Shown: positions 2,802 through 60,360 of the stretch, piece after piece
Layout of the letters: every line of letters starts with the position of its first letter
Numbering within the stretch: position 1 is the stretch's first letter
Assembly: GCA_034678605.1 (NCBI GenBank)
Contig: JAXDBQ010000032.1
Coordinates: 40,265 to 104,264 of the forward strand
Direction of reading: 5' to 3'
DNA: 64,000 nt
Origin: Patescibacteria group bacterium
Lineage (GTDB): Bacteria > Patescibacteriota > Minisyncoccia > Minisyncoccales > UBA5738
Program-made: the position numbers and the translations under genes
The notes under the pieces: generated by a model
What the model saw: the letters and a program-made list of their open reading frames with translations, nothing else
Database searches by the model: none
Told to the model about the DNA's origin: nothing

Positions 2802-2913
2802 GATAAAAGTTTAAAGCGTAAAGCGCAAAACTTAAAAGAAAAAATGCGGATTATTAAAAGTGTTAAGCGAATTTGTATTTTACTTTACGCTTTTCGCTTT
2901 ACACTTTACGTTT
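2802..2913. repeat. Family-2 A-rich repeat (AAAGCGTAAAGCG / CGCTTTACGCTTT units)
   Basis: gtttaaagcgtaaagcgcaaaac ... ctttacgcttttcgctttacactttacg. Confidence 0.6.
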
Positions 2914-3330: not shown

Positions 3331-3334
3331 AAAA

Positions 3335-3500
3335 GCGTAAAGCGTAAAGTGAAAAGCGCAAAGTAAGAAATACGGGAAGCGTAAAGCGTAAAGTGAAAAG
3401 CGTAAAGTAAGAAATACGGGAAGCGTGAAGCGTAAAAATTAAAGCGTAAAGCAAGAAACGCAAAGCGAAAAACGAAAAGTAAAATGCGGGCGCGAAAGGC
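3335..3500. repeat. Family-2 repeat with 59-bp tandem duplication (gcgtaaagcgtaaagtgaaaagcgYaaagtaagaaatacgggaa x2.3)
   Basis: Direct reading; the 185-aa track ORF 2906..3463 is a translation of this repeat. Confidence 0.7.
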
Positions 3501-10395: not shown

Positions 10396-12924
10396 TTAGA
10401 TTTGCCACCATGTTCCCGAGTAGCCGAACAGCGACAGGAATACGCCCACGATCAGCCAGGCAAAGAACAGCAGGCCGTAGCCGATGCCGATTAGTTTCCA
10501 CCAGGAGATGACTTTTTGCTTTAAATCGGGCGTGGAAAAATTGGTGAAAAATATTCCGGCGGTGGCAAGCCCCAAAATGGGCAAAAGCCAAAACGACATT
10601 TGGAACAAGAATAAATTAATGATCTGCATCGCGTTGAGCAAAAGGTGCTTTGCGCCGCATTTTTCGCGGTCATCCCATTCGGTGTTGGGGTTGTCGTTGG
10701 TCATGCCGCACACGGCCATCACTGCCTGCCCTTTTTTGATTTCTTGGCCGCCGGCCACAAAATCAAAGCTCCAAATTTCGGGCGTGGCGCCCGCGTCTTT
10801 GCATTGCGCGTCCAAGCAGGCCAGCACGCTCCATTGGTATTTGCCCAAGCAGAACATCTGGTCGATGTCGTTGTCCACCATTATCGAAGTGTCTTTGACG
10901 ATCTTTTCCACTTTGGGCCCGGGAGCGCAATCTTTATTGGTTTCCTTTTCCGAAACCTCTTTGTATTCCAAGGCGACTTTGTAATAATGCGCGCCGGCCA
11001 CCGGCTGCCACGATAGGTTGTAAGCGATTTGGCTGTTGTCCAGCGTGCTGCTGGCATTGGCCGGCGTTTTGGAGGCACCCAGGGCCGCGGTGGCAAACGA
11101 AAATTCCGGGCCGGCCGGGCCGCAAAGCGCGGCGCTGGCGTCGGCGCAGGTTTGCACTTTCCATTTATAGGATTGTTTTTGGTTGATGGTCGGATAGTCC
11201 AGGGTGTATTGGTTGGTAGCAGTTGTGATCTTTTGGCCGCCAAAATCCAAAATATAGGCCTTGGCGCCGGCAACCGCTTCCCATTGCAATTCAACCGGCA
11301 TGGCTACATCTTTGGCATTGTTGGTCGGTTGCATGGACGCGGTTTTGGGCGCGCGGCCGGTGGTGCGAAAATACCACCAGTCCGACCACGGCTCGTTGCA
11401 CACCTCGCCCACCGGAATTGCCGGCCAGCAGGACTTGGCGCGCCATTTGTAGGCCGTGTCCAATTCCAGTTCGATGTTTTGTTCTTCGCCTTTGGAATTA
11501 TTGGCGTTGCCTTTGGTGAAAAGCACTTGCGAAGTGGTCACGCGGCGTTCGCCGTTGACCAATGAGGTCGCGCCGGCGCCGGAAATTTTTTGAATGTCAT
11601 AGCCATAGGAATTGGCGCCGTTGGGCGCTTGCCATTGCAGGCGGCCGGGAAGTTCGGTGAGCTTGGCGTTTTGGTTGTCGGCATAATTGTTGTCGTTTCC
11701 CGGCGACAAAAGCGCGGGCGCGGGAACGGTTTCGTTTTTATCGGTGAAGGTCCACAACTGCCCCCAATATTTGTCGCTTTGGGTGTTGCAGTTTTCGTCG
11801 CCGGCATTGGTATTGTTGAAACAGCGCCGCAATTGCCAGTAATAGGTGTTGTTTTTGGTGAACAGCGCCCGGTCGGTGTTGGGCAATTGAAGGTGCGACC
11901 ACCAATAGCAATCGATAGCGGGGTTGTTGGCCAAGCATTTAACGTTTCTTGGGGTTTTGGCCTTGATGGGATTGACTACGTCGGCCTTGCAGGTGTTGTT
12001 GGTTTGTTTTTCCAGATAATGGCAGGCCAGCGGGTTTTTCAGCGCCGGCGTGTCTTTTTTGAGCCAATTGGCCAAGTCGCTGAATTTGGCCGGGATTTGC
12101 GCGCCGGTGAGCACCAATTGGTTTTCGTTGGTGTAGACGCGCATTTGGTATGACAGCGAATAGGGCTCGTTTTCGTTATAGGGCTGTTTTTCTTTTGAGA
12201 CCTGCGCGTGGCACCAATCCAGCCGCAGGTTTTTGTAGGAAATATTTTTGGCGCCGGCCGGGCCGTTCCAATCGGGATCGTCAAAATTTATCGGTTCGGG
12301 CGCCGGGCTGGTGCGAAAGGTCCACCAAGTGGCGTTTTCTTCGGGCTGGCAATAGGAGCCGTTTTCCTTGCAACACGGCCGCACGCGCCAACGGATGGTT
12401 TTGTCGGAGTTGTAAAAGCAGGGGTAATACAAATCCCGAGCGTTGAACTCGTTGGTGGTGAGGATTCGGCGGAAAATGCCGCCTTTGCTTTCGTCGTCGT
12501 TTAGTTCGCCGTTTTTGTTTTCGATCTCCAAAAGATAGGAGCGCGCGCCATAGGCCTTGGAGGTGGCGGCTTGGTTGCCCTGGCGGCCGTCCCATTCCCA
12601 ATGGTATTGGCCGTTTTCCAATTGCCACAAGGCGATGTGATCCCAGGCCAGCACCACCGGCAAAGTAACTTCGTTTTCGTTGGCTTGTTTGGTTTTGTTC
12701 ACCGGATCATCCAAGTAATAATGGCCGGGCGGGGTTTTTAAACAAGCGTTGGCGCAAATGCAGGTGGTCACGTCAACTTCCACCACATTGGTCATGGATT
12801 GTTTTTGTTCGGGCTGGCATTGAATGCCGCCGGCGATTGTGGCGCCGCAACCGCTTTCGGCGATCGCCGCCGCCGGCGCGATCAACGCCAGCGCCAGCGC
12901 GAGTTTGAAAAAATTGGTTTTCAT
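10396..12924 (-). CDS. Giant secreted surface protein: signal peptide, tandem FN3-like disulfide-containing repeats, C-terminal VirB2/TrbC-like two-TM pilin domain
   Basis: 842 aa; signal MKTNFFKLALALALIAPAAAIA; about 6 repeats with Y.W.V..C....C....W.F.T signature; C-terminus LLPILGLATAGIFF...KLIGIGYGLLFFAWLIVGVF is paralogous to the C-terminus of 13136..16084. Confidence 0.7.
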   Translation of the reverse strand: MKTNFFKLALALALIAPAAAIAESGCGATIAGGIQCQPEQKQSMTNVVEVDVTTCICANACLKTPPGHYYLDDPVNKTKQANENEVTLPVVLAWDHIALWQLENGQYHWEWDGRQGNQAATSKAYGARSYLLEIENKNGELNDDESKGGIFRRILTTNEFNARDLYYPCFYNSDKTIRWRVRPCCKENGSYCQPEENATWWTFRTSPAPEPINFDDPDWNGPAGAKNISYKNLRLDWCHAQVSKEKQPYNENEPYSLSYQMRVYTNENQLVLTGAQIPAKFSDLANWLKKDTPALKNPLACHYLEKQTNNTCKADVVNPIKAKTPRNVKCLANNPAIDCYWWSHLQLPNTDRALFTKNNTYYWQLRRCFNNTNAGDENCNTQSDKYWGQLWTFTDKNETVPAPALLSPGNDNNYADNQNAKLTELPGRLQWQAPNGANSYGYDIQKISGAGATSLVNGERRVTTSQVLFTKGNANNSKGEEQNIELELDTAYKWRAKSCWPAIPVGEVCNEPWSDWWYFRTTGRAPKTASMQPTNNAKDVAMPVELQWEAVAGAKAYILDFGGQKITTATNQYTLDYPTINQKQSYKWKVQTCADASAALCGPAGPEFSFATAALGASKTPANASSTLDNSQIAYNLSWQPVAGAHYYKVALEYKEVSEKETNKDCAPGPKVEKIVKDTSIMVDNDIDQMFCLGKYQWSVLACLDAQCKDAGATPEIWSFDFVAGGQEIKKGQAVMAVCGMTNDNPNTEWDDREKCGAKHLLLNAMQIINLFLFQMSFWLLPILGLATAGIFFTNFSTPDLKQKVISWWKLIGIGYGLLFFAWLIVGVFLSLFGYSGTWWQI

Positions 12925-13135: not shown

Positions 13136-16084
13136 TCACAATAGCGCGTTCCAGCTGGCGGCGGCGCTGTAGCCGGCAAATTGCATTAATAGTGAAACGA
13201 TGATCCAGGCGAAGATCAAGATCAAATAGCCGATGCCGATCTTGCGCCAGGTGTCTTTAATTTCGGCCAAAAGCTTTGATTTGTCTTGTGCCAGATAAAA
13301 AATTCCGCCGGTGATCGCGCCGGCGATTGGCAACAGCATCAACGCCAATTTGAAGATCACAAAATTAATGATCACCTTGGCCAGCAAAAACAAATGTTTT
13401 ATTTGGCAGGGCTCTTTTTCGTTGTATTCGGGCGTGTTGATTTTGTCGTCATAGTTTTGGCCGCAAACCATCAAGCCGGCGGTTTGTTTTTTTTCGATGA
13501 TCGAAAATGTTTGGGTGGCTTTTTTCGCGCCCGAACTCAATGATTTGCATTGGGAATCAAACGCCGGCTGAACCGAAAAGGAATATTGGCCGCCGCAATA
13601 TTGCGAGCTGCCGGTCTCTTTTGATTTGATCGCCAAACTGGTGCCGGCAACGCATTTTTCTTTATACTCATCGTTGAACCATTTTGGATCGCAACTGGTG
13701 CTGTCTTCGCCGCCGGCCACTTGAACGCTCACTTGATAATATTTGGCCGCGCCGCTCCAGCTCAAGCTTGGCGGAAGCTGGTTGATTTGATCTTCTGGCG
13801 CCAATCCCGTTGGCTTGTCAAAGTCCGCGGTTTTGAACGGCAGGATGTTGGTTTTGGCCGCACCGCAAATTTGTCCGGCCGCGTCGGCGCAAGTTTTCAC
13901 CGTCCAGTCGTATTTTTGATCAAAGGCCGAATAGTTAAACGAATATTGCGCGGCGGTGAGTACCAATTCGTTTTTGGGCGCGTCCGGGCCGGTGATCTTG
14001 ACGCGATAAGAACCGGCGCCGGGAACGCTTTCCCATTCGAGCGCGGCCGTGGGTGCGCTGGTTTTGGCGGTGGCGGTGAGCGGCGGACGGCCGGTGGTGT
14101 AAAAATAATTTGCCGGGCTCAACGACTTGCTGCAAATTTCATCGATCTTTTTGTTGGCCATGGGTATTGACGGCCAGCAGGATTTGACTTGCCATTGGTA
14201 GAGCGTGTCGAGTTTTAATTTTACCCGTCCGGGGTCGTTTTCTTGCGCCGGATCTTTGTCGGTTGTTAATGATATTAAAATTTGCGACACGGTCGCGCGC
14301 CGGCCTTGGTCGGCGGTATAAGTTTTATCTTTCTCAAAGATGCTGGCGCCGGTCTTGGCGTCTTTGATGTCGTAAAGGAAAGAGTTGGCGCCGCAGGGGG
14401 CCGTCCATTGAATGCTTCCGCCCTCTCCCACCAATCCCACCGGATCGCGGTTGCTTTTGTTTTTGTTGTTTGGCGGCGCCAACGGCGCGGGCGCGGTCAA
14501 ATTGGTGTCGGTGAACTTTTCGCCGGAGAATTTCCATTTTTGGCCGTAATCTTCATTATTGTAAGTGGCGCAAAACGGGAATTGCTTTTCGTCACCTTTT
14601 TTACCGGAAATGACATCAAAGCAAACTTTGGTTTGCCAAGAATAGATAAGATTCCCGTCGGCGTTGCCGGAAAAAAGGTTGCGGATCTTTTCTTGGTCAA
14701 AATACGGATGGAAATTCTGGTTTGGCTCAATAATCTCTTTTAAGTAGCTTGTGAACGGCACGCTTTCCGGTCTGCAGGTGCCGTCGTTTTGCAGTTCCAA
14801 ATAGTGGCACGACTCGCCGTCGCGTTGGCTTTCGGGCTGGTTGAAGGCGTTGAGGGCTTTGTTTTTCACTCCGGCCAATGATTTTGAAAGGTAATCGGAA
14901 AAGGCCTGGCTCAAATTGTTTGACCAAGAGCTGCTTGATAGCGTTTTTTGCATTATTGATTGGTAGTCCGACGGGCTTGTCCCGCCGATACTTCCCAAAA
15001 GATCCATCAGCGACCATGTTTCATTGAATTTAACGCGCATCTGATAATTGGCGGCATAATCAGCTTGGCTGGCATTATATTTTTTTGAGAAACGCGCGTT
15101 GTCGTCGGTCATCAATTTGGCTTTGCACCAATAGGGCTTGGCACTGCAAAAATGAACATCGGTTAATTTATCCGGGCCGTTCCAATCGGGGTCTTGGGTT
15201 GGATTCTTTTTGTTCGGGTGATTGTTGTCAACAATTCCCAGCGGTTCGGGTCCCGGGCCGGTGGTGAATGTCCACCACCCTTCGTCGTTTCCCATGGGTT
15301 TGCAGGTTGATTCTTCGCCGTTGGCGTCGCAGCAAGGTCGCACGCGCCATTGGTAGGCGGTGTTGGTGTTAAAAAAACATGCTCCCCCGTCCTCGCGGGA
15401 ATTAAACCCATCATTGATGCCGTCGTTATTTTTGTCGGCGATCACTTTGAAAAATATTTTGCCGCCGCCCAGCGCCTCGATGTTGTTGGGGTTGATGGTT
15501 TTGTCAATGTGCAGATTCGCGTCGCCGTTTTTGTATTCCTCATATTTGATCTCCACCCGGTAGCTTTGCGGGCCGCTGTCCACTTTTGTCGGTCCGTTTT
15601 TATATATCGGCGTTTTGTAAGGGTCTTTGTTTTTCCAACCGGCAATATCGTTCCATGCCAAAACCACCGGCAAAGTGATTTGGTTTGATTTTGTTTGCCG
15701 GGTATGATTTTTGGGATCGTCATAATACAAGGGGTTGGCGCTTGAATCAAACGGGGCTTCCAAGCATTCTTTTTCGCATTTGCACACGCCATAGTCGCTG
15801 CCGGTTTTGGCGACTTGCCAATCTTTGCAATATTGCATTGGTGGCCGGATGATCTTGCATTCTCCCGGCTTGCCTCCGGGAACTTCTCTTAATTCTTTTA
15901 TGAGCGAGCTTTTTCCATTTTGGTTGTGGCATTTACTATCATTGATTTGCTCTTCGTAATATTTTATATGTCCCGAACATGCTTTAGCTTCATTGCTAAA
16001 ACCAAAAATTATTACTGTTGAAAACAGCATAATCGAAAACGCGCGGAAAAAAATAGTTTGATTGCTTTTTAAAAATCGGGTCAT
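13136..16084 (-). CDS. Giant secreted surface protein, paralog of 10396..12924 (FN3-like Cys repeats plus C-terminal VirB2-like pilin domain)
   Basis: Track ORF 13136..16120; likely start MTRFLK at 16084; shared motifs RVRPCC...WWTFTTGPGPEP, DPDWNGP; C-terminus KHLFLLAKVIINF...LLPIAGAITGGIFY...KIGIGYLILIFAWIIVSLL. Confidence 0.7.
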   Translation of the reverse strand: MTRFLKSNQTIFFRAFSIMLFSTVIIFGFSNEAKACSGHIKYYEEQINDSKCHNQNGKSSLIKELREVPGGKPGECKIIRPPMQYCKDWQVAKTGSDYGVCKCEKECLEAPFDSSANPLYYDDPKNHTRQTKSNQITLPVVLAWNDIAGWKNKDPYKTPIYKNGPTKVDSGPQSYRVEIKYEEYKNGDANLHIDKTINPNNIEALGGGKIFFKVIADKNNDGINDGFNSREDGGACFFNTNTAYQWRVRPCCDANGEESTCKPMGNDEGWWTFTTGPGPEPLGIVDNNHPNKKNPTQDPDWNGPDKLTDVHFCSAKPYWCKAKLMTDDNARFSKKYNASQADYAANYQMRVKFNETWSLMDLLGSIGGTSPSDYQSIMQKTLSSSSWSNNLSQAFSDYLSKSLAGVKNKALNAFNQPESQRDGESCHYLELQNDGTCRPESVPFTSYLKEIIEPNQNFHPYFDQEKIRNLFSGNADGNLIYSWQTKVCFDVISGKKGDEKQFPFCATYNNEDYGQKWKFSGEKFTDTNLTAPAPLAPPNNKNKSNRDPVGLVGEGGSIQWTAPCGANSFLYDIKDAKTGASIFEKDKTYTADQGRRATVSQILISLTTDKDPAQENDPGRVKLKLDTLYQWQVKSCWPSIPMANKKIDEICSKSLSPANYFYTTGRPPLTATAKTSAPTAALEWESVPGAGSYRVKITGPDAPKNELVLTAAQYSFNYSAFDQKYDWTVKTCADAAGQICGAAKTNILPFKTADFDKPTGLAPEDQINQLPPSLSWSGAAKYYQVSVQVAGGEDSTSCDPKWFNDEYKEKCVAGTSLAIKSKETGSSQYCGGQYSFSVQPAFDSQCKSLSSGAKKATQTFSIIEKKQTAGLMVCGQNYDDKINTPEYNEKEPCQIKHLFLLAKVIINFVIFKLALMLLPIAGAITGGIFYLAQDKSKLLAEIKDTWRKIGIGYLILIFAWIIVSLLMQFAGYSAAASWNALL

Positions 16085-16091
16085 TAGATAA

Positions 16092-16910
16092 TTATAATTC
16101 AAAAGAGCGGGCAAGGCCAATCCAATTTTCCACGGCCAGGTCTTGCGCCCGGCAATTTCGCGGCAGATCGTTTTTGGCCAGCCATTCGATTGCTCGTTCG
16201 CGGCTGATATTCAAGCCGCCGGCCAGATTGCCGGCCAATTGTTTGCGCGGGTGGGCAAAGCCGGCTTTGGCGATCTTAAAGAACCGATCGATGAATTCTT
16301 TTTTGCACCCCTCCCCTGCTTTCGGAAACAGGTCGAGGCGCAGGATCGCGCTGTCGACTTTGGGCACGGGCCAAAAACAGCCGCGCGAAATTTGGCCGAT
16401 GATATTTGGCGCGGCATAGAACTGCACCGACAATGCCAACAAGTTCATTCGCGGCGGCTGGGCGCAAATTCTTTGCGCCACTTCTTTTTGCGCGATCACC
16501 GCCATTGATCGCGGCGGATTGCCGCTTTCCAAGAATTTGCGGATCATGGGCGCGGCGGCGTAGAAAGGCAAATTGGCAACGATCTTATAAGGCGGGATGA
16601 TCTTGCTTTCGTTGAATTTGAGCGCGTCGGCATTGATGATCTCGACATTTATCGCGTCGGCGAATTCTTTTCCGAGGATTGCGGCCAGCTCGCGGTCTTT
16701 TTCCACGGCAATCACGCGGTTGCCGGTTTTGGCCAATTCCCGCGTCAAATTGCCGGTGCCCGGGCCGATCTCCAAAATCGTTTGGTTATCTCCAAGCTCG
16801 GCGGCGGCGATCAATTTTTTGATCACGCCGATTTGGTTCAAAAAATTTTGCCCCAGCCGTTTTTTGGGTTTGACGGATGGTTTTTGGTCGTTTGTGTTTA
16901 TCATGATCAT
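16092..16910 (-). CDS. rsmA: 16S rRNA (adenine1518/1519-N6)-dimethyltransferase
   Basis: KKRLGQNFL, LEIGPGTGNLT SAM-binding motif; 272 aa. Confidence 0.9.
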   Translation of the reverse strand: MIMINTNDQKPSVKPKKRLGQNFLNQIGVIKKLIAAAELGDNQTILEIGPGTGNLTRELAKTGNRVIAVEKDRELAAILGKEFADAINVEIINADALKFNESKIIPPYKIVANLPFYAAAPMIRKFLESGNPPRSMAVIAQKEVAQRICAQPPRMNLLALSVQFYAAPNIIGQISRGCFWPVPKVDSAILRLDLFPKAGEGCKKEFIDRFFKIAKAGFAHPRKQLAGNLAGGLNISRERAIEWLAKNDLPRNCRAQDLAVENWIGLARSFEL

Positions 16911-20613: not shown

Positions 20614-23583
20614 TCAATTCGGCAATTGATCGAAAAGCTTCACCAAAGAATCGTTTGAAGTTGAAAACGCGAAATATTTTTGTTCGTAAATCGCCCATGC
20701 CAGGGCGAAATTATCGCCGGCCGGCTTGAAGTCGACCGATTTGTATTCGATTCCTTTGGCGGTTTGCGAAATTTCAAATTTTAAAATTTCTTTTTCGTCT
20801 TGGGGCTTACGATCAAGGCGGCTGAAAAAGTAATTCGTGTCGGCAATTGCGGTTTTCTCCCAGGCCGAAAGAGCGGTTTTCAATGTTCCGGGATTGGCGG
20901 CGGCGGCCACGAACCCAAGTCGGTTTTTGCCGTTTTTGGCGTAAATGAAAAGATTGATTTCATCGCCCGTCGAGTTGTAAAAAGCGGCCGGCGGGTTGAT
21001 TTTGTACGCGCTTAAAAATTGCCTCACTCCGATTTTGGCGCCGGTAACCTTGTTTTTTATTTCAACTCCATGATAGCCATCTTCCATTTTTTTGAGCAGA
21101 TTCGGGTACAGCAAATTCGGGATATTGGAAACATCGTCCAGATAAATGGTTATCAATGAAATTGTTGAGACCGGTGATGTGTTTGCCGGCTCGGGTTCTT
21201 TTTCGGCGGGAGTTTTTTTGATCGCGGTTGTTTTTGCCGGCGGTTCGGCCTTTTTGGTCGCCGAGGGGGCGCTGTTTTTGCTCAATATCATCACAAGAAT
21301 AACCCCGAATAGTCCGGCCAAGACCAAAATAACCATCATTCTTGCCAGCAGTTTATTGTCGCCGGATTTTTTTTGAACCGGCAAGGGATCGATTTCGATT
21401 TTTTTGCCATATTCCCTAACGGCGGCCGGGTTTGCCGAGGGGACGGTGGTTTTTTTGATTTGTTGCCATCGATTTTCCAAATTCCGCGCCAATTCCGGCG
21501 GCTGCTCCAAGGATTTAAATTCCGGCGCGGCCGTTTTTTCATTTATTCCGTTTGATATCGTTTCTTTTTTAACATTTTGAGTTTCCGGAGCCGCCGTTGG
21601 TTTTTCTTTGGGCAAATTGAGCCGGTCGAGCGAAGGAATGTTTTTGGTCGGCTGGGATTCGATTTTTTCCCGATAAAAAGCCGAAGCGTCCGATGCCAAA
21701 CTTTTTTTATCGAGCGGTTTTTCTTTCGAAGAATTATTTGCCGCGACCGCCGCCGGAGTTGCTTTTTGGATTTCGTTTTGAATGTTTTTTATCGCAAGAC
21801 CGTCGGTTCCGTCTGTTTTCGCGGCCGTTTTTTGTTGCGGTTCGCTTTTTGCCGTATCGCGCGGTTTCAAAAGATCGTTTGCCATTGGGACATTTTTTTT
21901 GGCTTCAATGGCGGTTTCATGGGTCTCGTTATCTCGCGGTAGCGGATCATTTTTTTTCGCCGTTTCTTTTTTTGTTTGATCGGGAACCGCTTGCTTTACG
22001 GGATCTTCAAGTTCGGACGCGGTTTGCTTTTCTTCGGGTTGAGTTTGGATGATGTCTTTTAGGACATCTTTTTCGTATTTTATTTGATTTTCATCCAAAA
22101 GGCCGCCGATTAGATCGCGGATTTGGCGTACCGGCAAGTTTTCTTTTTCGAGCGCGGCTTCTTTTGTCGCGATTTCATTTTGGACGCGGTCTATTTTCGC
22201 GTCGAGAATGCCGATTTTATTTCGCAATGATTCGCTTTTAGCGGCAATTTCCTTTAGACTTTTTTGATTTTCCCATTTGAGGCGGACGATGGATTTCAAT
22301 TTTTCGCCGATATCCCAGCGCTGCCGTTCGGCGGCTCTTTTTTCGGCGGGATCGGCGGCCGTTTTTTCCATGTTTTCGGCTTTTTCAAGTTCTATGTTTA
22401 TTTCGTTTTCTTCTTTCGCGGCTTTGGCGAGGTCGGCTTCTTTTTCTTTTTGGGAATTTTTTGCCGATTCAAAATCCGGCAGCAGCGCCTCTTTTTCTTC
22501 GATGATTTTTAATATTTCTTCTTCAAGCCGGTTTTTTTCCGCGGCGAAATTCGCGATTTTTTCTTTTCCGCCAATGTCTTTTATTTTTGATTTTATGAAT
22601 TCCGCTTGGCTGTCTTTGGCCATTATTTCGGCAACGATGTTTTCCGTTTCGGCGGCGATCTTGAAAACGCGGTCTTCCACGTCCCAGCGTTGCTTTTCGA
22701 TTTTTTTACGTTGTTCTTCGTTTTCCCATATTTTTTCTTTTACCGTTTTTTCCTGTTCAGTCGGCTGGTTTTCTTTGACCTTTGTTTTTTCCGCCTCGAT
22801 TTTGCTTTCGATTTCTTTTTCCAATTCTTCAATGGCGGCCAATTCGCTTTTTTTTATCATCTCGATCTTGCTTTCCAGCGCGGTCCTTTTTTGTTCCAAA
22901 GGCGCTTTTTGAGCGGGGATTTCCAAAAGCTGTTTTTCAAGATCGCTTTTTTTTTGCTTTAGTTTGGCGGCAAGCTCTTTTAAAATCGCGGGAAGGTCGC
23001 GGTGGGCGTCAACGATAATCTCCGGAGCGGCGGAGTCGAAGGGATTGACGGCAAACGCTTCCTTTTTTTGCCGCGCCAAATCCTGGAGTTTCTTTTTTTC
23101 GCGCTCTTCTTCCAGCAGGATCAACCGTTGGCGCGTTTCTTCCTGGATTCGATTTTTTTCCGCTTCTTGGCGTTTTTTTTCTTCCGCGATCTTTTCTTGC
23201 CGTTTTGTTTCTTTTTTTTGTTCTTCGGCCAAAAGCGCCGCCGCTTCCCGTTTTTTTTGTTCTTCGGCGCGCGCTTGTTCTTCGGCCGCGGTTTTTTCTT
23301 TTTGGGCGGCATCCTTTTCGATGTTTTCAAGCGCTTTTTCCAGGGATCGCGATTTTTCGGCCGCGACGGTTTCTGTTTTTTTTGGCGTTGGCGCGGCGGT
23401 CGTTTTTTGTACGATTGGCGATAGCCCTTTTCGGGCCGGGTTTATTGGAAGCCCCAACGACTCGCGCAGGGAATCGTTTAATCCTTGTATGTCAAAATCA
23501 ACCGCCTCCGGTTTTTCGGAGTCTTTGCTTTTGGCAACCGCCTTTGCCAAAGTTTGGATGGCGTTTTTTTTGAATTTCAGCAT
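20614..23583 (-). CDS. Large membrane protein: N-terminal about 640-aa K/E-rich coiled coil, single TM, about 300-aa C-terminal domain; hypothetical
   Basis: 989-aa uninterrupted ORF; TM MMVILVLAGLFGVILVMIL; plus-strand ORFs over the same DNA are F/S-rich antisense artefacts. Confidence 0.6.
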   Translation of the reverse strand: MLKFKKNAIQTLAKAVAKSKDSEKPEAVDFDIQGLNDSLRESLGLPINPARKGLSPIVQKTTAAPTPKKTETVAAEKSRSLEKALENIEKDAAQKEKTAAEEQARAEEQKKREAAALLAEEQKKETKRQEKIAEEKKRQEAEKNRIQEETRQRLILLEEEREKKKLQDLARQKKEAFAVNPFDSAAPEIIVDAHRDLPAILKELAAKLKQKKSDLEKQLLEIPAQKAPLEQKRTALESKIEMIKKSELAAIEELEKEIESKIEAEKTKVKENQPTEQEKTVKEKIWENEEQRKKIEKQRWDVEDRVFKIAAETENIVAEIMAKDSQAEFIKSKIKDIGGKEKIANFAAEKNRLEEEILKIIEEKEALLPDFESAKNSQKEKEADLAKAAKEENEINIELEKAENMEKTAADPAEKRAAERQRWDIGEKLKSIVRLKWENQKSLKEIAAKSESLRNKIGILDAKIDRVQNEIATKEAALEKENLPVRQIRDLIGGLLDENQIKYEKDVLKDIIQTQPEEKQTASELEDPVKQAVPDQTKKETAKKNDPLPRDNETHETAIEAKKNVPMANDLLKPRDTAKSEPQQKTAAKTDGTDGLAIKNIQNEIQKATPAAVAANNSSKEKPLDKKSLASDASAFYREKIESQPTKNIPSLDRLNLPKEKPTAAPETQNVKKETISNGINEKTAAPEFKSLEQPPELARNLENRWQQIKKTTVPSANPAAVREYGKKIEIDPLPVQKKSGDNKLLARMMVILVLAGLFGVILVMILSKNSAPSATKKAEPPAKTTAIKKTPAEKEPEPANTSPVSTISLITIYLDDVSNIPNLLYPNLLKKMEDGYHGVEIKNKVTGAKIGVRQFLSAYKINPPAAFYNSTGDEINLFIYAKNGKNRLGFVAAAANPGTLKTALSAWEKTAIADTNYFFSRLDRKPQDEKEILKFEISQTAKGIEYKSVDFKPAGDNFALAWAIYEQKYFAFSTSNDSLVKLFDQLPN

Positions 23584-32909: not shown

Positions 32910-34451
32910 ATGGAAAATATCGATTATTTGAATTTGGCGCGGGCCGAGGATTTGGCGGGCGCCAAAAAAAGGGGATACCGGCTGCTGGAAGTTTTTCCGG
33001 GAATTTTGGCGTGGGCCACGTTGCTTTTTGGGTTTGTATTGTCGTGGCGCTGGCCGGTGGCGGTGGCGGTGTTTATCATCGCGTTTGATCTTTATTGGCT
33101 GTGCCGGGTTTTGTATTTGGCGGCGCATCAAATCGCCAGTTATAAAAAAATGAAAAAAGCGATCGTTGCCGATTGGCAAAAAAAACTGCGCGCGGATTTT
33201 GGCGACAGCTGGCGCGAAATTTATCATTTGGTGATTTTGCCGTTTGCCAGCGAGGGGCCGGAAGTGGTGAAAACCACGCTCGATTCGTTGATGGCCGTTG
33301 ACTATCCCAAGGACAAGATCATCGTGCTTTTGGCCGTGGAAGATATCGCTTCGGCGCGCGATTTGGCGCGGGAAATGGAAAGCGAATATAAAAATAAATT
33401 TTTCGCGATTTGGAGCGTGATTCATCCGCGAGGGGTTGCCGGCGAATTAAAAGGCAAGGGCGCCAATGTGAATTGGGCGATCGAGGAGTTGAAAACAAAA
33501 TTGTTGCCGGCATTGGGCGTCGCGGCCGAAAATATCGTGGCGTCGCTTTTTGATATCGACACCAAACCTCATCCGCGGTATTTCTCATGTTTGACCTGGC
33601 ATTATTTGAACGCGCCCGACCGGCTTTTGAAAAGTTATCAGCCCATTCCGGTTTATAACAATAACATTTGGGACGCGCCGTTGGTGAGCCGGATCATCGC
33701 CACCTCATCGACTTTTTGGGAGATGATGCAACAAGAACGGCCCGAACAATTGGTGACATTTTCAAGCCATTCCATGCCGTTAAAAACGCTTTTGGAAGTT
33801 GGTTATCCGCGCAACGTGGTGTCCGACGATTCGCGGATTTTTTGGCGGGCCTATTTTTATTATCGGGGAAATTATAAAGTCGTGCCCATGTATTATCCGG
33901 TGTCGATGGACGCGGTGATCGGTAAAAACGCTTTGCGCACCATGATCAACCAATACAAACAACAGCGGCGCTGGTCGTGGGGAGTGGAGAATTTGCCTTA
34001 TGTGTTTTTTAATTTGTTTTTCGGGCCGGCGCGAAAACAAATAAAGTTGGGCGAAAAAATGTTTCATGTTTTCACGATCATCGAGGGTTTTTGGTCGTGG
34101 GCCACCGGTTCGCTTTTGACCTTTGGTTTGGCATGGCTGCCTTTGTTGCTGGGAAGCGAAAAATTCAAATCCAGTTTGCTTTCCCACAACTTGCCCATGT
34201 TGGCGTCAACGATAATGACCTTGGCCATGGTGGGCATGGTGGTGTCGGCCATCATCAGCATGCTGCTGTTGCCGCCCCGGCCGGCAAACCACGGCAAATG
34301 GCGACACGCGTCAATGTTGTTGCAGTGGCTGTTTTTACCGATAACCTTGATCTTTTTCGGCTCCCTGCCGGCGCTGGAATCCCAAACCCGTTTGATCATC
34401 AACCGGCCCCTCGGCTTCTGGATCACCGAAAAAGGCAGCAAAAAGGGTTGA
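32910..34451 (+). CDS. Family-2 processive glycosyltransferase (cellulose/chitin/hyaluronan-synthase-like, membrane-embedded)
   Basis: 513 aa; GT2 core; QQRRWSWG (QxxRW) processivity motif; N- and C-terminal TM helices. Confidence 0.8.
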   Translation: MENIDYLNLARAEDLAGAKKRGYRLLEVFPGILAWATLLFGFVLSWRWPVAVAVFIIAFDLYWLCRVLYLAAHQIASYKKMKKAIVADWQKKLRADFGDSWREIYHLVILPFASEGPEVVKTTLDSLMAVDYPKDKIIVLLAVEDIASARDLAREMESEYKNKFFAIWSVIHPRGVAGELKGKGANVNWAIEELKTKLLPALGVAAENIVASLFDIDTKPHPRYFSCLTWHYLNAPDRLLKSYQPIPVYNNNIWDAPLVSRIIATSSTFWEMMQQERPEQLVTFSSHSMPLKTLLEVGYPRNVVSDDSRIFWRAYFYYRGNYKVVPMYYPVSMDAVIGKNALRTMINQYKQQRRWSWGVENLPYVFFNLFFGPARKQIKLGEKMFHVFTIIEGFWSWATGSLLTFGLAWLPLLLGSEKFKSSLLSHNLPMLASTIMTLAMVGMVVSAIISMLLLPPRPANHGKWRHASMLLQWLFLPITLIFFGSLPALESQTRLIINRPLGFWITEKGSKKG

Positions 34452-50787: not shown

Positions 50788-51148
50788 TGGTGTGCATGGA
50801 TGGGATCGGACCATCGGCCGCAGCTTTATGAAATTGTTGCTACAATTTCCGCCAAAAATAATAATTAATTTGGGCGGTGGGCGCAGATGGACTCGAACCA
50901 TCGACCCCGGCTTTATGAAACCGTTATAGCGGTTTCCGCCATTATTTTAAAAATTCTGGTAGTGGGCGTGGAAGGGATCGGACCTTCGGCCCCCACTTTA
51001 TAAGAGTGGTGCTCTAACCACTGAGCTACACGCCCAGAATTTTTAAAATAATGTCATAAGAGCCGTGCTCTAACCGACTGAGCTATGCGCCCAAATTAAT
51101 TATTATTTTTGTCATAAGAGCTGTGCTCTACCACTGAGCTACACGCGC
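50788..51148 (-). other. Nested split-tRNA locus: outer tRNA halves (5' half about 51111..51148, 3' half about 50788..50853) enclose a middle tRNA (5' half about 51053..51092, 3' half about 50872..50940), which encloses an intact tRNA (50963..51035); each insert is flanked by a perfect inverted repeat
   Basis: Middle pair: acceptor GGGCGCA/TGCGCCC and anticodon stem CGGCT/AGCCG are complementary across the pieces; outer pair: anticodon stem CAGCT/AGCTG and acceptor 6/7 bp; inner IR ATTATTTTAAAAATTCT/AGAATTTTTAAAATAAT (17 bp); outer IR AAAAATAATAATTAATTTGG/CCAAATTAATTATTATTTTT (20 bp). Confidence 0.55.
50963..51035 (-). tRNA. Intact innermost tRNA, anticodon UAU (Ile-AUA reading), CCA not encoded
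   Basis: GGGCGTGTAGCTCAGTGGTTAGAGCACCACTCTTATAAAGTGGGGGCCGAAGGTCCGATCCCTTCCACGCCCA; anticodon stem CCACT/AGTGG, loop CTTATAA; T-loop TCCGATC slightly atypical. Confidence 0.6.
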
Positions 51149-54119: not shown

Positions 54120-54290
54120 CGCACCCGTGTTTCGCATTCGCATTTTGTATTCGTAGGGGCGAAACTATGTTTTCGCCCGAATTGTATTTTTGCGTTGCAT
54201 CCGTAGGGGCGGCCTTTATGGCCGCCTTTTTACATAGGCGGAAAATCGGGCAACCACAAGGGTTGCCCTTACGAATGCAAATGCCGGATT
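54120..54290. repeat. Family-6 GC-hairpin repeats (GTAGGGGCGaaac..GCCCC; GGCGGCCtttaTGGCCGCC; caaGGGTTGCCCtt)
   Basis: Re-occur at 55490..55610 (inverted) and 56085..56180. Confidence 0.6.
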
Positions 54291-55484: not shown

Positions 55485-55489
55485 TTCGT

Positions 55490-55610
55490 TCTGCGTTTGT
55501 ATTTTGTATTTGTAGGGGCGATTCTATGTAATCGCCCAGTTTGCGGTTGTTTTTTATTCGTGATGCGGGCGAAAACATAGTTTCGCCCCTACAAATGCGA
55601 ATGCGAAGGG
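55490..55610. repeat. Family-6 repeat copy, inverted orientation
   Basis: tttgtatttgtaggggcgattctatgtaatcgccc ... gggcgaaaacatagtttcgcccctacaaatgcgaatgcg. Confidence 0.55.
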
Positions 55611-56084
55611 TTGACAATCGGCGGGCGGCCGGTTTACTATCAAAGCAGACTCGCAAGAGTTGAGTTTGCGCGAAGGGCGCATCCTGCCATTGGCGGGTAA
55701 AAACAAAAAATTGAAATTTTTGCGCCAAACCGCCCATTTCGGCGGAAAAATTGAGATTTTTGCACAAATACCATGATGATGGACGAAGGTACCCAAACAG
55801 GAACCCCTGTTGCCGAACCGGCCGCTACAACTCCGGAACCGGCGACAACTCAAGATGCTCCGGCGACCGAAGCTCCGGCGCAACCGGAACAAACGCCGGC
55901 CGCCTAACGATCGGGCCAAAAAAAACATATCGCGCGCGGTATGTTTCGTAAAAGTTGGATAATTCCAATTTTTTGTTTTCAATCGTTTGTTTTGCCATTT
56001 TTCGTGCCTCGGCGCATGGGCGAGCCGATCACGGCGCGAAAGCAAATCAAATAGCGTTAAAGCGGGTCATTCCCGCTTTTTTGC

Positions 56085-56180
56085 TTGCGTTTTTTGTATT
56101 GCACCCGTAGGGGCGGCCTTTATGGCCGCCCTTTTAAAATGCGGGCGACCACAAGGGTTGCCCCTAAAATGCGAATACGG
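56085..56180. repeat. Family-6 repeat copy
   Basis: ttgtattgcacccgtaggggcggcctttatggccgccc ... ccacaagggttgcccctaaaatgcgaatacgggg. Confidence 0.55.
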
Positions 56181-56725: not shown

Positions 56726-56823
56726 CCTGATCTTCCGGTTCTTTTTTTATATAAACGCGCGAAGGGCTTCAATTATTCGCCAAATTTGCTACATTCAAAG
56801 TGTGTAAAATCTTATTTATTGTT

Positions 56824-59800
56824 ATGGAACAAAATTTCAATCAAAGAGAGGAAAGGACAATTAAATTTTGGAAGGAAAATAAAATTTTTGAAAAGTCGGT
56901 GAAGCGTGCCCCTAAACGCAAAAAAGAATTCGTTTTTTACGAGGGGCCGCCCACGGCCAATGCCAAGCCGGGGATCCATCATGTGGAGACGCGGGTGTTT
57001 AAGGACATGGTTTGCCGCTACAAAAACATGGCCGGTTTTCGCGTGCCGCGGCGCGCCGGCTGGGACACGCATGGCCTGCCCGTGGAACTGCAGATCGAGA
57101 AGAAATTGAATTTGCGCAACAAAAAAGAGATCGAAAAATTCGGCATCAAGGAATTCAACAAAGAATGCCGGGATTCGGTGTTCGAGCAGATCGGCGAGTG
57201 GCGCAATTTAACCGAGCGCATCGGCTATTGGCTGGATTTGGACAATCCCTATATCACCTACGACGCCCGTTATATGGAGTCGGTGTGGTTTATTTTGAAG
57301 CGGGCTTGGGAAAAGAAGTTGTTGTTCCAGGATTACAAAGTGATCCCTTATTGTTCGCGGTGCGGCACCGCGCTTTCCAGCCATGAAGTGGCGCAGGGTT
57401 ACCAAAAAGTAAAAGACCCGTCAGTGTTTGTCAAGTTCCGGATATTGAACCCGGAGGTCAAGAACGCGGCGCTGCTGGTGTGGACCACCACGCCTTGGAC
57501 TTTGCCGGCCAACGTGGCCGCGGCCGTGAATTCGGAAATGGATTATGTGAAAGCCAAGCCGAAAGAAGGAAGCGGCGAAGCGCTGATCCTGGCCAAAAGC
57601 CGATTGGAAATATTGGGCGAGGACTATGAGGTTGTTGAGGAAATGAAAGGCCAAAAACTGGTTGGTTTGCGCTACCAGGCGGTTTTTCCGGTCGAGCGCG
57701 AATCCGAAAAAACGATCTACAAAGTGATCGCCGCGGATTTTGTGTCGGCGGTCGACGGCAGCGGCATCGTGCATATCGCGCCGGCATTCGGCGCCGAGGA
57801 CATGGAGGTGATCCGCGGCCAAAACAAGCAGCTGCGGGAAAGCGGCCAACCGGAGTTTCCGGTGATCTTGAATGTTGCCGAAGACGGCGGCTTCACTTTG
57901 GAGGTGGCCAAGTGGGCGGGGATGTTTGTGAAAGATGCCGATCCGTTAATAATCAAGGATCTGGAAGCGCGCGGCTTGCTGTTCAAGACCGAGCCCTATG
58001 AGCACGATTATCCTTTTTGTTGGCGGTGCAAGACACCGCTATTGTACTATGCCAAAAAGAGCTGGTTCATCAAGATGACCGCGTTGCGCCAAAATTTGCT
58101 GGAAAACAACCAAAAGATCAATTGGGTGCCGGCGCATTTAAAGGAAGGGCGCTTTGGCGAATGGCTGCGCGAAGTGAAGGATTGGGCCATCTCGCGCGAC
58201 CGCTATTGGGGCACGCCTTTGCCGGTGTGGAATTGCGCTTGCGGCAACATTGAAGTCGCCGGTTCTTTGGGCGACCTGCTGGCCAAAAAATATTCGGCAA
58301 ACCGCTATTTCATCATGCGCCACGGCGAATCGCGCCGCCAGATTAAAAAGGTCTCTTCGTGCTGGCCCGAGGCCGAGCCGCTGCCGCTCACGGAAAAGGG
58401 CAAAAAAGAAGTTGCCGCGGCGGCCAAAAAATTGGCCAAGGAAAAGATCGATCTGATCATTGCCTCGGATATCTTGCGGACAAAGGAAACCGCGCAAATT
58501 GCGGCGCAGGCAACCGGCGCTAAAGTTGTTTTTGACAAGCGCTTGCGCGAGCACAATGTGGGCGAATTCAATGGCACCGATCCCAAGAATTTTTGGGAAT
58601 TCGCCAACGCGAAAATTGACCGGTACGCGGCCAAGCCCAAGGGAGGGGAAAGCTTGGTGATGGTGCGCAAGCGGATGTATGAATTTTTGGCCGAGATCGA
58701 CAAAAAATACCAAGGCAAAACAATTTTGCTGGTGGGGCATGAATTGCCGTTCACGGTTTTGGAGCATACTCTGAAGGGGATATCGCTGCCGGAGATCATC
58801 GAAAGCCGCTATTCGGGCAAGATCAAAAGAATTGTCACGGCCGCGGCCAAAAAGATCGAATTCAAGCAGCTGCCATTGAACGATGACGCTGAAATCGATC
58901 TGCATCGGCCGTTCATTGATGGCGTCAAGCCGGTTTGCGCCAAATGCGGCGGGCAAATGGCGCGCGCGCCCGAAGTGCTTGATTGCTGGCTGGATTCGGG
59001 TTCGATGCCCTTGGCCCAGGCCTATTGGCCCTTTAAAAAAGGCGATTCGCCGGCCAAGCCGGTAAAATTGTTCCCCGCGGATTTTATTTCCGAAGCCATC
59101 GATCAGACGCGCGGCTGGTTCTATACTTTGCTGGCCGTGTCCACCACCATGGGGTTTGGCGCGCCCTACAAGAATGTGGTGTCGTTGGGGCATGTTTTGG
59201 ATCAAAACGGCGAGAAAATGTCCAAATCAAAGGGCAATGTGGTCAATCCATGGGAGATGGTGCAAAAATACGGCGCCGACGCGGTGCGCTGGTATTTTTA
59301 CACGGTCAATGATCCGGGCGACCCCAAGCTTTATAACGAAAAGGATTTGGAGTTGGCGCAAAAGAAATTTCTGCTCACTTTTTGGAATTGCTATGTGTTC
59401 TTGAAAACCTACGCGCCCGCAATAAAAGCGCCGGCGACGATCGCGCCGGTCAATGTGCTGGACAAATGGATCGTGTTGCGGCTTCATTCGGCGTTGGCCG
59501 AAATCACCGATTGTTTAGAAAGATATGATATCACCCGTGCCGCCCGCAAAATAGAGGATTTTACGATCAATGATTTGTCGCTGTGGTATGTGCGCCGGTC
59601 GCGCCGGCGGCTGCAGCAGCCGCAAAGCCCGGCCGAACTAAATCAGGCGGCCAAGGTTTTTGCCTATATTTTGGCGAATTTGGCCAAAACCAGCGCGCCG
59701 TTTGTTCCGTTTTTGAGTGAGGAGATTTGGCAGGGATTGTCGGGAAATGGTTTTTCCAAATCCAAGTCAGTGCATTTGGAACCATGGCCCGCGGCAAATA

Positions 59801-60360
59801 AAAAAATGATCGATTCGGAATTGGAAAAGCAGATGACGCGGGTGCGCGAACTCACCGCGCTGGTTTTGGCCGAGCGGGCCAAGCATGGCGTGAAAGTGCG
59901 CCAGCCGCTGGCCAAGCTTGCGGTCGGCGGCCCTACCTTCGCCAAGGCTACGGCGGGCGAAGAAATAAAATTGGGCGATGAGTTGCGCGATCTATTGGCT
60001 GGCGAAGTGAATGTCAAAATCATTGAATTTGATCCGGAGCAAAAAACCGCGGTCGAGATCGATTGGAATATTACGTCTGAATTGAAAGAAGAAGGCAATA
60101 TGCGCGAAGTGATGCGCCAGATCCAGGAATTGCGCAAAACCGCCAAATTCACCCCGCAAGACAAGATCACCATTTACGTCCAAGCCGAAAGTGAGTTAAG
60201 GGCCGCGATCGAAAAACATCGGAAAATGATCGTCAAAGAAACCAAGGCCGCCGCGATTAAATTCGAAAAGCCGGCCAAGCCCGCGGCGCAAATCGAAGTC
60301 AAAATTGACGGTGTCTCTTTATGTCTGGGAATTAAGAAATTGTCATCAAAGTTGTTTTAA
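56824..60360 (+). CDS. ileS: Isoleucine--tRNA ligase (type-2) carrying an inserted histidine-phosphatase (PGAM-like) domain
   Basis: Track ORF 56800..60360; editing domain TTTPWTLPAN; WAISRDRYWGTPLPVWNC; DCWLDSG; KMSKS; the about 210-aa insert (about 58290..58910) has RHGESRR and LLVGHELPF catalytic-His motifs. Confidence 0.9.
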   Translation: MEQNFNQREERTIKFWKENKIFEKSVKRAPKRKKEFVFYEGPPTANAKPGIHHVETRVFKDMVCRYKNMAGFRVPRRAGWDTHGLPVELQIEKKLNLRNKKEIEKFGIKEFNKECRDSVFEQIGEWRNLTERIGYWLDLDNPYITYDARYMESVWFILKRAWEKKLLFQDYKVIPYCSRCGTALSSHEVAQGYQKVKDPSVFVKFRILNPEVKNAALLVWTTTPWTLPANVAAAVNSEMDYVKAKPKEGSGEALILAKSRLEILGEDYEVVEEMKGQKLVGLRYQAVFPVERESEKTIYKVIAADFVSAVDGSGIVHIAPAFGAEDMEVIRGQNKQLRESGQPEFPVILNVAEDGGFTLEVAKWAGMFVKDADPLIIKDLEARGLLFKTEPYEHDYPFCWRCKTPLLYYAKKSWFIKMTALRQNLLENNQKINWVPAHLKEGRFGEWLREVKDWAISRDRYWGTPLPVWNCACGNIEVAGSLGDLLAKKYSANRYFIMRHGESRRQIKKVSSCWPEAEPLPLTEKGKKEVAAAAKKLAKEKIDLIIASDILRTKETAQIAAQATGAKVVFDKRLREHNVGEFNGTDPKNFWEFANAKIDRYAAKPKGGESLVMVRKRMYEFLAEIDKKYQGKTILLVGHELPFTVLEHTLKGISLPEIIESRYSGKIKRIVTAAAKKIEFKQLPLNDDAEIDLHRPFIDGVKPVCAKCGGQMARAPEVLDCWLDSGSMPLAQAYWPFKKGDSPAKPVKLFPADFISEAIDQTRGWFYTLLAVSTTMGFGAPYKNVVSLGHVLDQNGEKMSKSKGNVVNPWEMVQKYGADAVRWYFYTVNDPGDPKLYNEKDLELAQKKFLLTFWNCYVFLKTYAPAIKAPATIAPVNVLDKWIVLRLHSALAEITDCLERYDITRAARKIEDFTINDLSLWYVRRSRRRLQQPQSPAELNQAAKVFAYILANLAKTSAPFVPFLSEEIWQGLSGNGFSKSKSVHLEPWPAANKKMIDSELEKQMTRVRELTALVLAERAKHGVKVRQPLAKLAVGGPTFAKATAGEEIKLGDELRDLLAGEVNVKIIEFDPEQKTAVEIDWNITSELKEEGNMREVMRQIQELRKTAKFTPQDKITIYVQAESELRAAIEKHRKMIVKETKAAAIKFEKPAKPAAQIEVKIDGVSLCLGIKKLSSKLF

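Follow-up and report, generated by a model that had tools for sequence, protein, structure and literature searches.

A branch-1 histidine phosphatase domain embedded in type-2 isoleucyl-tRNA synthetases of Patescibacteria

The ileS gene in a 64,000-nt stretch of the genome of a Patescibacteria group bacterium (Minisyncoccales; contig JAXDBQ010000032.1; hereafter, the window) encodes a protein that is almost certainly the housekeeping type-2 isoleucyl-tRNA synthetase (IleRS2) of a Patescibacterium with an inserted branch-1 histidine phosphatase. Matches to Pfam and to the NCBIfam model TIGR00392 bear out the original prediction, made from the sequence alone, that a complete domain of this superfamily resides in the catalytic body of a type-2 enzyme. 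The open reading frame (ORF) is uninterrupted at 56800–60360 on the plus strand and comprises 1186 amino acids (aa) if counted from its GTG; in the database the gene begins with the ATG at 56824, giving 1178 aa, and the product is 100% identical to protein P0054. Residues are numbered below in the frame from GTG 56800, unless ATG numbering is indicated (as in P0054, lower by eight); coordinates of the features are collected in Table 1.

The protein as a whole scores 891.8 bits with TIGR00392 (ileS) at the cutoff of 621.4, and this match consists of two stretches flanking the insert, as does the match of the whole protein to tRNA-synt_1 (PF00133 of Pfam, E-value 8e-114). Alignment with IleRS of Thermus thermophilus (1ILE) has E-value 7e-242, and the best Foldseek match of the full-length AlphaFold2 (AF2) model is IleRS2 of Priestia megaterium (8C8V, template-modeling (TM) score 0.78). 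Anticodon_1 (PF08264, E-value 1.8e-33) is followed by the type-2 C-terminal domain DUF5915 (PF19302, E-value 1.9e-23), so both the C-terminal region and the closest structure are of type 2. The CP1 editing domain matches the isolated T. thermophilus editing-domain chains 1WK8/1WNY with E-values 1e-38 to 1e-34, and is bracketed by the first Cys4 zinc site (C185/C188 and C407/C410). Throughout an alignment of 112 sequences, the Thr-rich editing peptide TTTPWT, the zinc-site cysteines, including C471/C473 and C705/C708 of the second knuckle (ATG numbering), and KMSKS (K798 to S802, ATG numbering) are invariant, and on these grounds the synthetase part looks functional. Specificity for isoleucine is suggested by orthology, the gene occupying a syntenic slot shared with insert-less ileS.

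The class-I signature has an unusual form in this protein, 'KPGIHHVETR' standing opposite 'LPHVGHAQAR' of T. thermophilus in the 1ILE alignment. GxHH is found in 103 of the 107 homologs where PPTAN could be located, 13 of the 120 being not scorable. This variant of HIGH, shared with hyper-mupirocin-resistant IleRS2, has been tied to mupirocin hyper-resistance and is functional, or tolerated, in IleRS2 only (Brkic 2023). The mupirocin-resistance enzymes MupA and MupB (NF000257/NF000258) were rejected as candidates, the scores being 772–799 bits with the cutoff of 1900; they have the IleRS2 type alone in common with our protein.

Query residues 8–496 align with residues 5–479 of the T. thermophilus enzyme, and residues 699–1031, with 488–821; because of the gap left between these blocks, approximately 202 residues in our protein replace approximately eight. 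The original estimate, about 210 extra residues at 58290–58910, is close to the boundaries obtained from the 1ILE alignment (Table 1), which were also defined against the insert-less IleRS of loci L002 and L003. Upstream of the insert, C479/C481 stand opposite C461/C464 of T. thermophilus, and downstream, C713/C716 opposite C502/C504; therefore, the insert is in the loop of the second Cys4 zinc knuckle. This places it in the connective-peptide (CP) region, termed CP2 or CP3 in papers, after the CP1 editing domain and ahead of the second Rossmann half. A frameshift or an assembly chimera is ruled out by the continuous ORF, by the homogeneous GC content across both junctions (0.50–0.57), and by the presence of both junctions in more than 100 homologs from independent assemblies. 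Moreover, the identical protein P0054 is found on NCBI contigs (154.6 and 55.8 kb) and in Logan assemblies.

The inserted segment contains His_Phos_1 (Pfam, E-value 1.4e-31, 110–114 bits compared to the gathering threshold of 21.7, profile positions 2–166 of 194), and domain E-values at this level rule out chance RHG and GH motifs. When it is aligned with PhoE of Bacillus (1EBB/1H2E) and PspA of Hydrogenobacter (4IJ5), each position can be matched; Arg507-His508, Arg560, Glu584, and His647 coincide with the catalytic set of PhoE, and Gln514 stands in place of the usual Asn. Both catalytic histidines and the intervening arginine motif, noticed initially in a single sequence, are real and conserved in a set of 236 embedded copies (31–100% identity) and 77 small or free ones: among the former, R507, R560, H647, and E584 (as E or D) are retained in all 236, and H508, in 234, while the latter have the same catalytic residues. 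The mean frequency of the top residue is 0.66 in the insert, 0.72–0.75 in the synthetase core, and 0.53 in the C-terminal domain. The AF2 model, based on the 112-sequence alignment, has a mean predicted local distance difference test (pLDDT) score of 89.5 and a predicted TM score of 0.82; the domain and both linkers reach pLDDT 94–97, which fits a well-packed domain rather than a floppy loop. Judging from these residues, the domain looks CATALYTICALLY competent, and its conservation makes a role for catalysis highly probable. Many insertions in synthetases are non-catalytic, and the rigid docking predicted by AF2 would also suit a catalytically silent structural module that binds tRNA or a protein, or stabilizes the enzyme. 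We regard such a module as very improbable, given five catalytic residues that are essentially invariant in embedded copies as divergent as these, and RHG that is intact in 75 of the 77 copies found in valyl-tRNA synthetases (ValRS, described below).

The domain modeled alone (AF2 pLDDT 88.9) has the α/β phosphoglycerate-mutase-like fold, as confirmed by Foldseek, which matches it with E. histolytica PSP (TM score 0.75–0.78), PspA 4IJ6 (0.77), PhoE 1H2E (0.76), CobC (0.74–0.76), Rv2419c GpgP (0.74), and the riboflavin-pathway HFP (0.74). Thus, the initial label of a phosphoglycerate mutase-like domain holds for the fold and fails for the mutase type: the nearest relatives are PspA, PhoE, CobC, and GpgP, while the scores with models of cofactor-dependent phosphoglycerate mutases (dPGM) are far below the cutoffs (82–84 bits vs. 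225 for dPGM_arch, 30.5 vs. 81.7 for pgm_1, and 60–65 vs. 261 for GpmB). In Escherichia coli GpmA, the mutase-specific residues after the acid Glu are E-R-H-Y, and there is a C-terminal tail. In the insert, E-H-N-V is found at this position (aa 584–587), and the domain ends approximately 20 aa beyond H647, after which IleRS resumes; with these residues and the tail absent, and dPGM structures matching at TMt 0.55–0.62 with root-mean-square deviation 5–7 Å, assignment to dPGM was rejected by residues and by fold as well. Two other assignments failed on scores, CobC α-ribazole phosphatase (TIGR03162, 77.7–81.5 bits vs. 162.9) and PspA phosphoserine phosphatase (NF045917, 57.8–63.1 bits vs. 350), the latter despite PspA being the nearest solved structure. 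By sequence comparison, the domain forms a clade of its own within the phosphatase-type branch and belongs with the small phosphomonoesterases resembling PhoE, PspA, and CobC. It has the Arg-His…Arg…Glu…His set of small branch-1 phosphatases, their size (approximately 170–200 aa), and no mutase-specific extensions, and shares the fold with PspA (4IJ5/4IJ6), PhoE (1EBB/1H2E), CobC (6E4B/6NRU), and GpgP (4PZ9) at TM scores 0.74–0.78; unlike these enzymes, to which it is 18–26% identical, it either forms part of another enzyme or has its gene located between argS and ileS.

The histidine-phosphatase superfamily includes the protein phosphatases SixA, PGAM5, and Sts-1, and HipA/HipT kinases inactivate the class-I synthetases GltX and TrpS. 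The domain might then be a protein phosphatase or a regulatory switch that dephosphorylates the synthetase or its partner, e.g., undoing inhibitory Ser/Thr/His phosphorylation by HipA-type toxin kinases, or senses a phosphometabolite to tune charging. This would agree with weak similarity to SixA (TIGR00249, 27–32 bits), but the score is far under the cutoff of 74.5 bits, and the match is confined to the N-terminal 70 or so residues, so that SixA itself was rejected as an assignment. The nearest structures are metabolite phosphatases, no kinase gene was found in approximately 90 inspected neighborhoods, and near-universal conservation across a class fits a housekeeping function better than defense; hence we consider a regulatory function improbable.

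The embedded domain is widespread, and the original question whether related Patescibacteria carry it is answered in the affirmative: all 120 best full-length hits, drawn from JGI, ENA, NCBI, and Logan (52–100% identity, 1145–1361 aa), contain both PF00133 and PF00300. A phmmer search with the insert alone yields 11,081 relatives, and among the best 150, most long proteins are IleRS with the domain in the same place. In species-representative genomes, at least 145 relatives were identified with two peptide patterns derived from a seven-sequence domain alignment; the patterns are narrow, hence the number is a lower bound biased to close relatives. Out of 80 loci fetched from these 145, 66 have a single embedded domain, two (L039 and L042), tandem embedded domains, and one, a truncated embedded gene; in ten loci a free phosphatase gene precedes an insert-less ileS, and L080, ending after the phosphatase gene, could not be called. 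Wherever a source is named, it belongs to Patescibacteria of the Parcubacteria/Paceibacteria type; among the loci from species-representative genomes, the informative record titles are Paceibacterota, Minisyncoccales, Nealsonbacteria, Wildermuthbacteria, Staskawiczbacteria, Parcubacteria, and Paceibacter normanii.

Many bulk metagenome-assembled genomes labeled "uncultured Candidatus Saccharibacteria" carry loci of the Paceibacteria type, and one fragment (P0003) is attributed to Sedimentisphaerales, probably due to a binning error. We also observe variants of the architecture. Two tandem phosphatase domains are present in some IleRS of 1369–1468 aa (L039 3739–7845, L042 2145–6251, P0227, and P0296), and in P0296 (1419 aa) the second copy, aa 871–1061, is directly ahead of the anticodon-binding domain. 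P0251 and P0321 (1030 aa) are divergent IleRS-like proteins with the phosphatase domain, which score 296 bits with TIGR00392, below the cutoff; the distance from the first Rossmann half to the phosphatase is only about 110 aa, and they apparently lack the full CP1 editing domain.

The closest free relatives of the insert (P0010, P0011, P0012, P0013, and P0023; 44–50% identity) are encoded in one conserved block, in which L20-L35-IF3 and SmpB on the minus strand are followed by argS, one or two phosphatase genes, ileS, in some cases a small ORF, and recO. The cistrons overlap or abut, so that in these sister lineages the free phosphatase gene is translationally coupled to its neighbors: argS of L003 extends to 2888, the phosphatase gene occupies 2869–3480, and ileS starts at 3474, while L002 and L005 have overlaps of 4 nt. 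The IleRS adjoining the free phosphatase (927–992 aa) have no insert: PLPIWQCQQCGAYRCVGSVKELGKKLTDLHRP. In insert-bearing genomes the block of SmpB, argS, ileS, and recO is kept and there is no free phosphatase gene (L009, L010, and many of L012–L091), while L001 encodes, within the same SmpB/argS/ileS block, an arginyl-tRNA synthetase (ArgRS) with the phosphatase at its C-terminus. As the block is shared across these loci, we deal with one gene in three states, free, fused to ArgRS, and inserted in IleRS; by the same comparison, the insert-bearing ileS is evidently an ortholog of the ordinary housekeeping ileS.

In the window itself, the block is broken upstream of ileS, where an FdtA-like gene is found, and neither argS nor a free phosphatase copy was found within its 64 kb; downstream of ileS there is a Na/Ca-exchanger-like gene, as in L009. 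Some operons with the free phosphatase contain additional genes. In L089 a CYTH (triphosphate-tunnel) gene at 6558–7145 (PF01928, E-value 7e-16) lies between the phosphatase gene and ileS, in L073 a LigB/Memo-like gene at 1850–2482 lies between argS and the phosphatase gene, and in L075, L082, and L083 there are extra unassigned ORFs of approximately 220 aa between the free phosphatase gene and ileS. All of them are lineage-specific singletons and provide no consistent functional clue.

Neighbor-joining (NJ) trees, built for the IleRS core and for the domain (168 columns in the latter case), do not cleanly separate the free and embedded states. In particular, the free domain of L068 is 80% identical to the embedded domain of L052, their IleRS cores being 49% identical. 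Rather than a single origin of the insertion, this mixing suggests more than one transition or exchange between the states, although NJ, with trees shown without bootstrap values, is a weak method, insufficient for counting the events.

It could also be that an unrelated metabolic phosphatase of a housekeeping kind, encoded by chance between argS and ileS, has been captured, that is, absorbed into a permissive surface loop or the ArgRS tail while staying uncoupled from aminoacylation, and the fusion would merely preserve its expression in a shrinking genome. Consistent with capture, the free gene adjoins both hosts, the tip of a zinc knuckle, with the chain ends close together, is typical of sites that tolerate insertions, the catalytic residues do not differ between free and embedded forms, and conservation of the domain can exceed that of the host, as in the pair described above. 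We nevertheless find this scenario unlikely, as the adjacency of argS, the phosphatase gene, and ileS, with overlapping stop and start codons, is itself kept across IleRS cores that are only 38–60% identical, that is, over deep divergence, as another class of Patescibacteria has independently placed the domain in ValRS, and as the partners in other loci, TsaC and a QueC-like enzyme included, are all of one functional class, which would be unexpected under random capture.

These partners were identified among the proteins most similar to the insert. P0189 is ArgRS with a C-terminal phosphatase behind the anticodon-binding DALR domain, P0237 is TsaC (threonylcarbamoyl-AMP synthase; TIGR00057, 146.8 bits vs. 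the cutoff of 123.2) with a phosphatase, and P0306 and P0320 combine it with a QueC-like PP-loop enzyme, encoded on five contigs beside a transporter of the Vut_1/YhhQ type; the TsaC and QueC-like fusions form one or two clusters each. P0203 is ValRS with four phosphatase copies, one before WCISRQ and three in tandem after 'RIPVWY', the latter site being homologous to the insertion position in IleRS. A search with this protein shows that 67 of its 119 relatives (P0326–P0444) carry the domain in one to three copies, 61 of the 67 at the homologous site and a minority before WCISRQ. The named sources of the ValRS-embedded form are Gracilibacteria and Peregrinibacteria; hence, with IleRS colonized in one class and ValRS independently in another, a CP-embedded histidine phosphatase is a recurrent feature of Patescibacteria.

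The synthetase half of the protein would act as any IleRS2, with GxHH and KMSKS responsible for adenylate formation and CP1, for editing. In the phosphatase half, His508 would be the nucleophile, Arg507, Arg560, and His647 would hold the phosphoryl group, and Glu584 would serve as the acid. We tentatively propose, as a possibility that still falls short of a probable one, that the domain is a small-molecule phosphohydrolase that removes a common product of adenylate-forming enzymes, inorganic pyrophosphate (PPi) or AMP. IleRS, ValRS, ArgRS, TsaC, and QueC-type enzymes all convert ATP to an adenylate and PPi, and then release AMP, as is established biochemically. The proposal is based on a fold of the small-molecule phosphatase type, on partners that appear to share these products rather than a step at the tRNA end, and on the existence of free, ArgRS-tail, and one-to-four-copy forms. 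The phosphatase would hydrolyze a small phosphorylated compound made at or near such enzymes, with PPi and AMP as the leading candidate substrates; in cells short of energy, adenylate formation and charging would thereby become effectively irreversible. As both the position and the number of copies vary, dosage seems more important than geometry, so that the fusion may mainly secure co-expression and stoichiometry. A less likely variant is that the phospho-histidine intermediate passes phosphate from PPi to AMP, recycling both as ADP.

Several considerations weigh against product removal. We know of no branch-1 histidine phosphatase acting as a physiological pyrophosphatase or AMP phosphatase, and a freely diffusing product gains little kinetically from tethering of the enzyme. 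PPi and AMP are made by all 20 synthetases, but only IleRS, ValRS, and ArgRS are regular partners, while the TsaC and QueC-like fusions are rare, and the fusion to ArgRS could be a trivial read-through of neighboring genes. Finally, the position could matter, as exactly one CP site is used for the insertion in both IleRS and ValRS, and AF2 predicts a rigidly docked domain.

The latter features bring in a function at the tRNA end, put forward originally together with action on a nucleotide alarmone: the domain may strip the 3′-phosphate or the 2′,3′-cyclic phosphate, or act on the 5′-phosphate, thus making damaged or unusually processed tRNA chargeable. The insertion is in the CP region of the catalytic body, and the site colonized independently in ValRS belongs to another class-Ia editing enzyme, in which CP elements guide the CCA end. 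The domain is predicted to be rigidly connected and is somewhat more basic than the host (net charge per 100 aa +7.8 vs. +3.1, a mild difference that is not decisive), and the operon with the free form is flanked by two synthetases. At the same time, the nearest structures are all small-molecule enzymes, in ArgRS the copy is found beyond the anticodon-binding domain at the C-terminus, distant from the acceptor end, two to four tandem copies occur, TsaC and the QueC-like enzyme act on small molecules and do not process tRNA ends, the free form works untethered, and few synthetases have the domain, whereas every tRNA would need healing. To our knowledge, no member of the superfamily acts on RNA ends. 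Overall, the comparative evidence leans away from a geometry-dependent function of this kind, and we hold it to be unlikely; yet more doubtful is its specific form, in which class-Ia synthetases first clear the 3′-phosphate or 2′,3′-cyclic phosphate from tRNA-CCA and then aminoacylate it. If true, these would be the first synthetases that chemically heal their own tRNA substrate, and 3′-end damage or unusual 3′-end processing would be routine in Patescibacteria.

The protein has the synthetase core, CP1, two Cys4 zinc sites, KMSKS, and type-2 C-terminal domains in common with IleRS2 8C8V and with 1ILE, and differs from any solved IleRS by the phosphatase in the second zinc-knuckle loop. There are partial precedents for such an architecture. 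The best NCBIfam match of the insert is the Rv2228c-type RNase H/acid phosphatase family (NF005567, 84–88 bits, under the cutoff of 326), in which a CobC-like histidine phosphatase is fused to an enzyme of nucleic-acid metabolism; whereas our domain is inserted internally in a synthetase, that one is joined end to end with RNase HI in Actinobacteria. IleRS hosting a further catalytic domain is known from the family NF040702 ("ileS_w_GNAT"), with which our protein scores 328 at the cutoff of 1999; we found no literature on IleRS with the GNAT domain. In some eukaryotic algae, fusions of ATP sulfurylase, APS kinase, and pyrophosphatase provide an example of a product-removing hydrolase on a PPi-releasing enzyme. 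The hydrolase there is a canonical family-I pyrophosphatase, while here it is a histidine phosphatase for which such a role is only proposed.

The combination of a synthetase and a histidine phosphatase was not found in the searchable literature, coverage of which is incomplete, and papers dedicated to the evolution and structure of IleRS mention neither a phosphatase nor Patescibacteria. Since public sequences produce both Pfam hits and bear only generic names from the NCBI annotation pipeline PGAP, the architecture is visible in databases yet apparently undescribed. The PGAP name of most proteins of the embedded form is "class I tRNA ligase family protein", and not isoleucine--tRNA ligase.

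The gene content of the window is typical of Patescibacteria (PNPase, RecG, FtsH, IF-2, a Mur ligase, and large proteins without Pfam domains). Four large ORFs have no Pfam match: 13136–16120 (–), 20614–23583 (–), 10396–12924 (–), and 32910–34451 (+), encoding 994, 989, 842, and 513 aa, respectively. A gene for tRNA-Ile with anticodon TAT (UAU) and no encoded CCA is located at 50962–51035 on the minus strand, 5.8 kb upstream of ileS. Most bacteria read AUA via tRNA-Ile(CAU) with lysidine, while tRNA-Ile of the UAU type is rare and requires an adapted IleRS. An Rfam scan around ileS produced no match. Upstream of ileS, genes are sparse over 2 kb, and this zone has several families of short hairpin repeats of high GC content (54129–54271, 55488–55601, and 56079–56166), such as GTAGGGGCGAAAC...GTTTTCGCCC and GGGCGGCC...GGCCGCC, in direct and inverted orientation; they look like repetitive extragenic palindromes or terminators, and yield spurious ORFs with common 'RGETMFSP'.

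Table 1. Positions of ileS, of its domains and motifs in the window, and of fusions of the same phosphatase module in other loci (aa numbering from the GTG).
Feature	Position	Strand	Basis
ileS, type-2 IleRS with embedded phosphatase domain	56824..60360	+	ORF, TIGR00392, identity to P0054
Class-I signature motif, G-I-H-H instead of H-x-G-H (aa 58–61)	56971..56982	+	
CP1 editing domain (aa 200–405)	57397..58014	+	Match to isolated T. thermophilus editing-domain chains 1WK8/1WNY
PLPVWNC (aa 473)	58216 (start)	+	Motif
Second zinc knuckle, first half, C479-x-C481 ('NCAC', aa 478)	58234..58242	+	Directly upstream of the insert
Inserted segment (aa 497–698), phosphatase domain and return linker of about 30 aa	58288..58893	+	1ILE alignment
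His_Phos_1 (PF00300) core (aa 504–666)	58309..58797	+	Pfam
RHG (aa 507–509)	58318 (start)	+	Motif
Catalytic R507/H508	58318..58323	+	PhoE alignment
Catalytic R560	58477	+	PhoE alignment
Catalytic E584	58549	+	PhoE alignment
GH (aa 646–647)	58735 (start)	+	Motif
Catalytic H647	58738	+	PhoE alignment
DLHRP (aa 700)	58897 (start)	+	Motif
Second zinc knuckle, second half, C713-x2-C716 ('CAKC')	58936..58947	+	Shortly after DLHRP
KMSKS catalytic loop (aa 806–810)	59215..59229	+	Motif
Anticodon_1 (aa 888–1038) and DUF5915 (aa 1046–1180)	59461..60339	+	Pfam
Fusion to the ArgRS C-terminus	L001 6001..8070		
Fusion to TsaC	L095 977..2140		
Fusion to QueC-like enzyme	L092 4397..6136		

Few enzymes are as conserved as aminoacyl-tRNA synthetases, the cores of which seldom contain new catalytic domains; across a large part of Patescibacteria, however, an essential synthetase houses another enzyme that is apparently active. 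The free gene, the terminal fusion, the internal insertion, and the tandem copies, all in one syntenic block, form a natural series for the study of domain insertion. On the practical side, filters based on length or architecture may misjudge ileS as a marker gene in genomes of the Candidate Phyla Radiation. For the biology of these organisms, with their minimal genomes and poor energy supply, the finding points to an unrecognized phosphate-handling step tied to aminoacylation.

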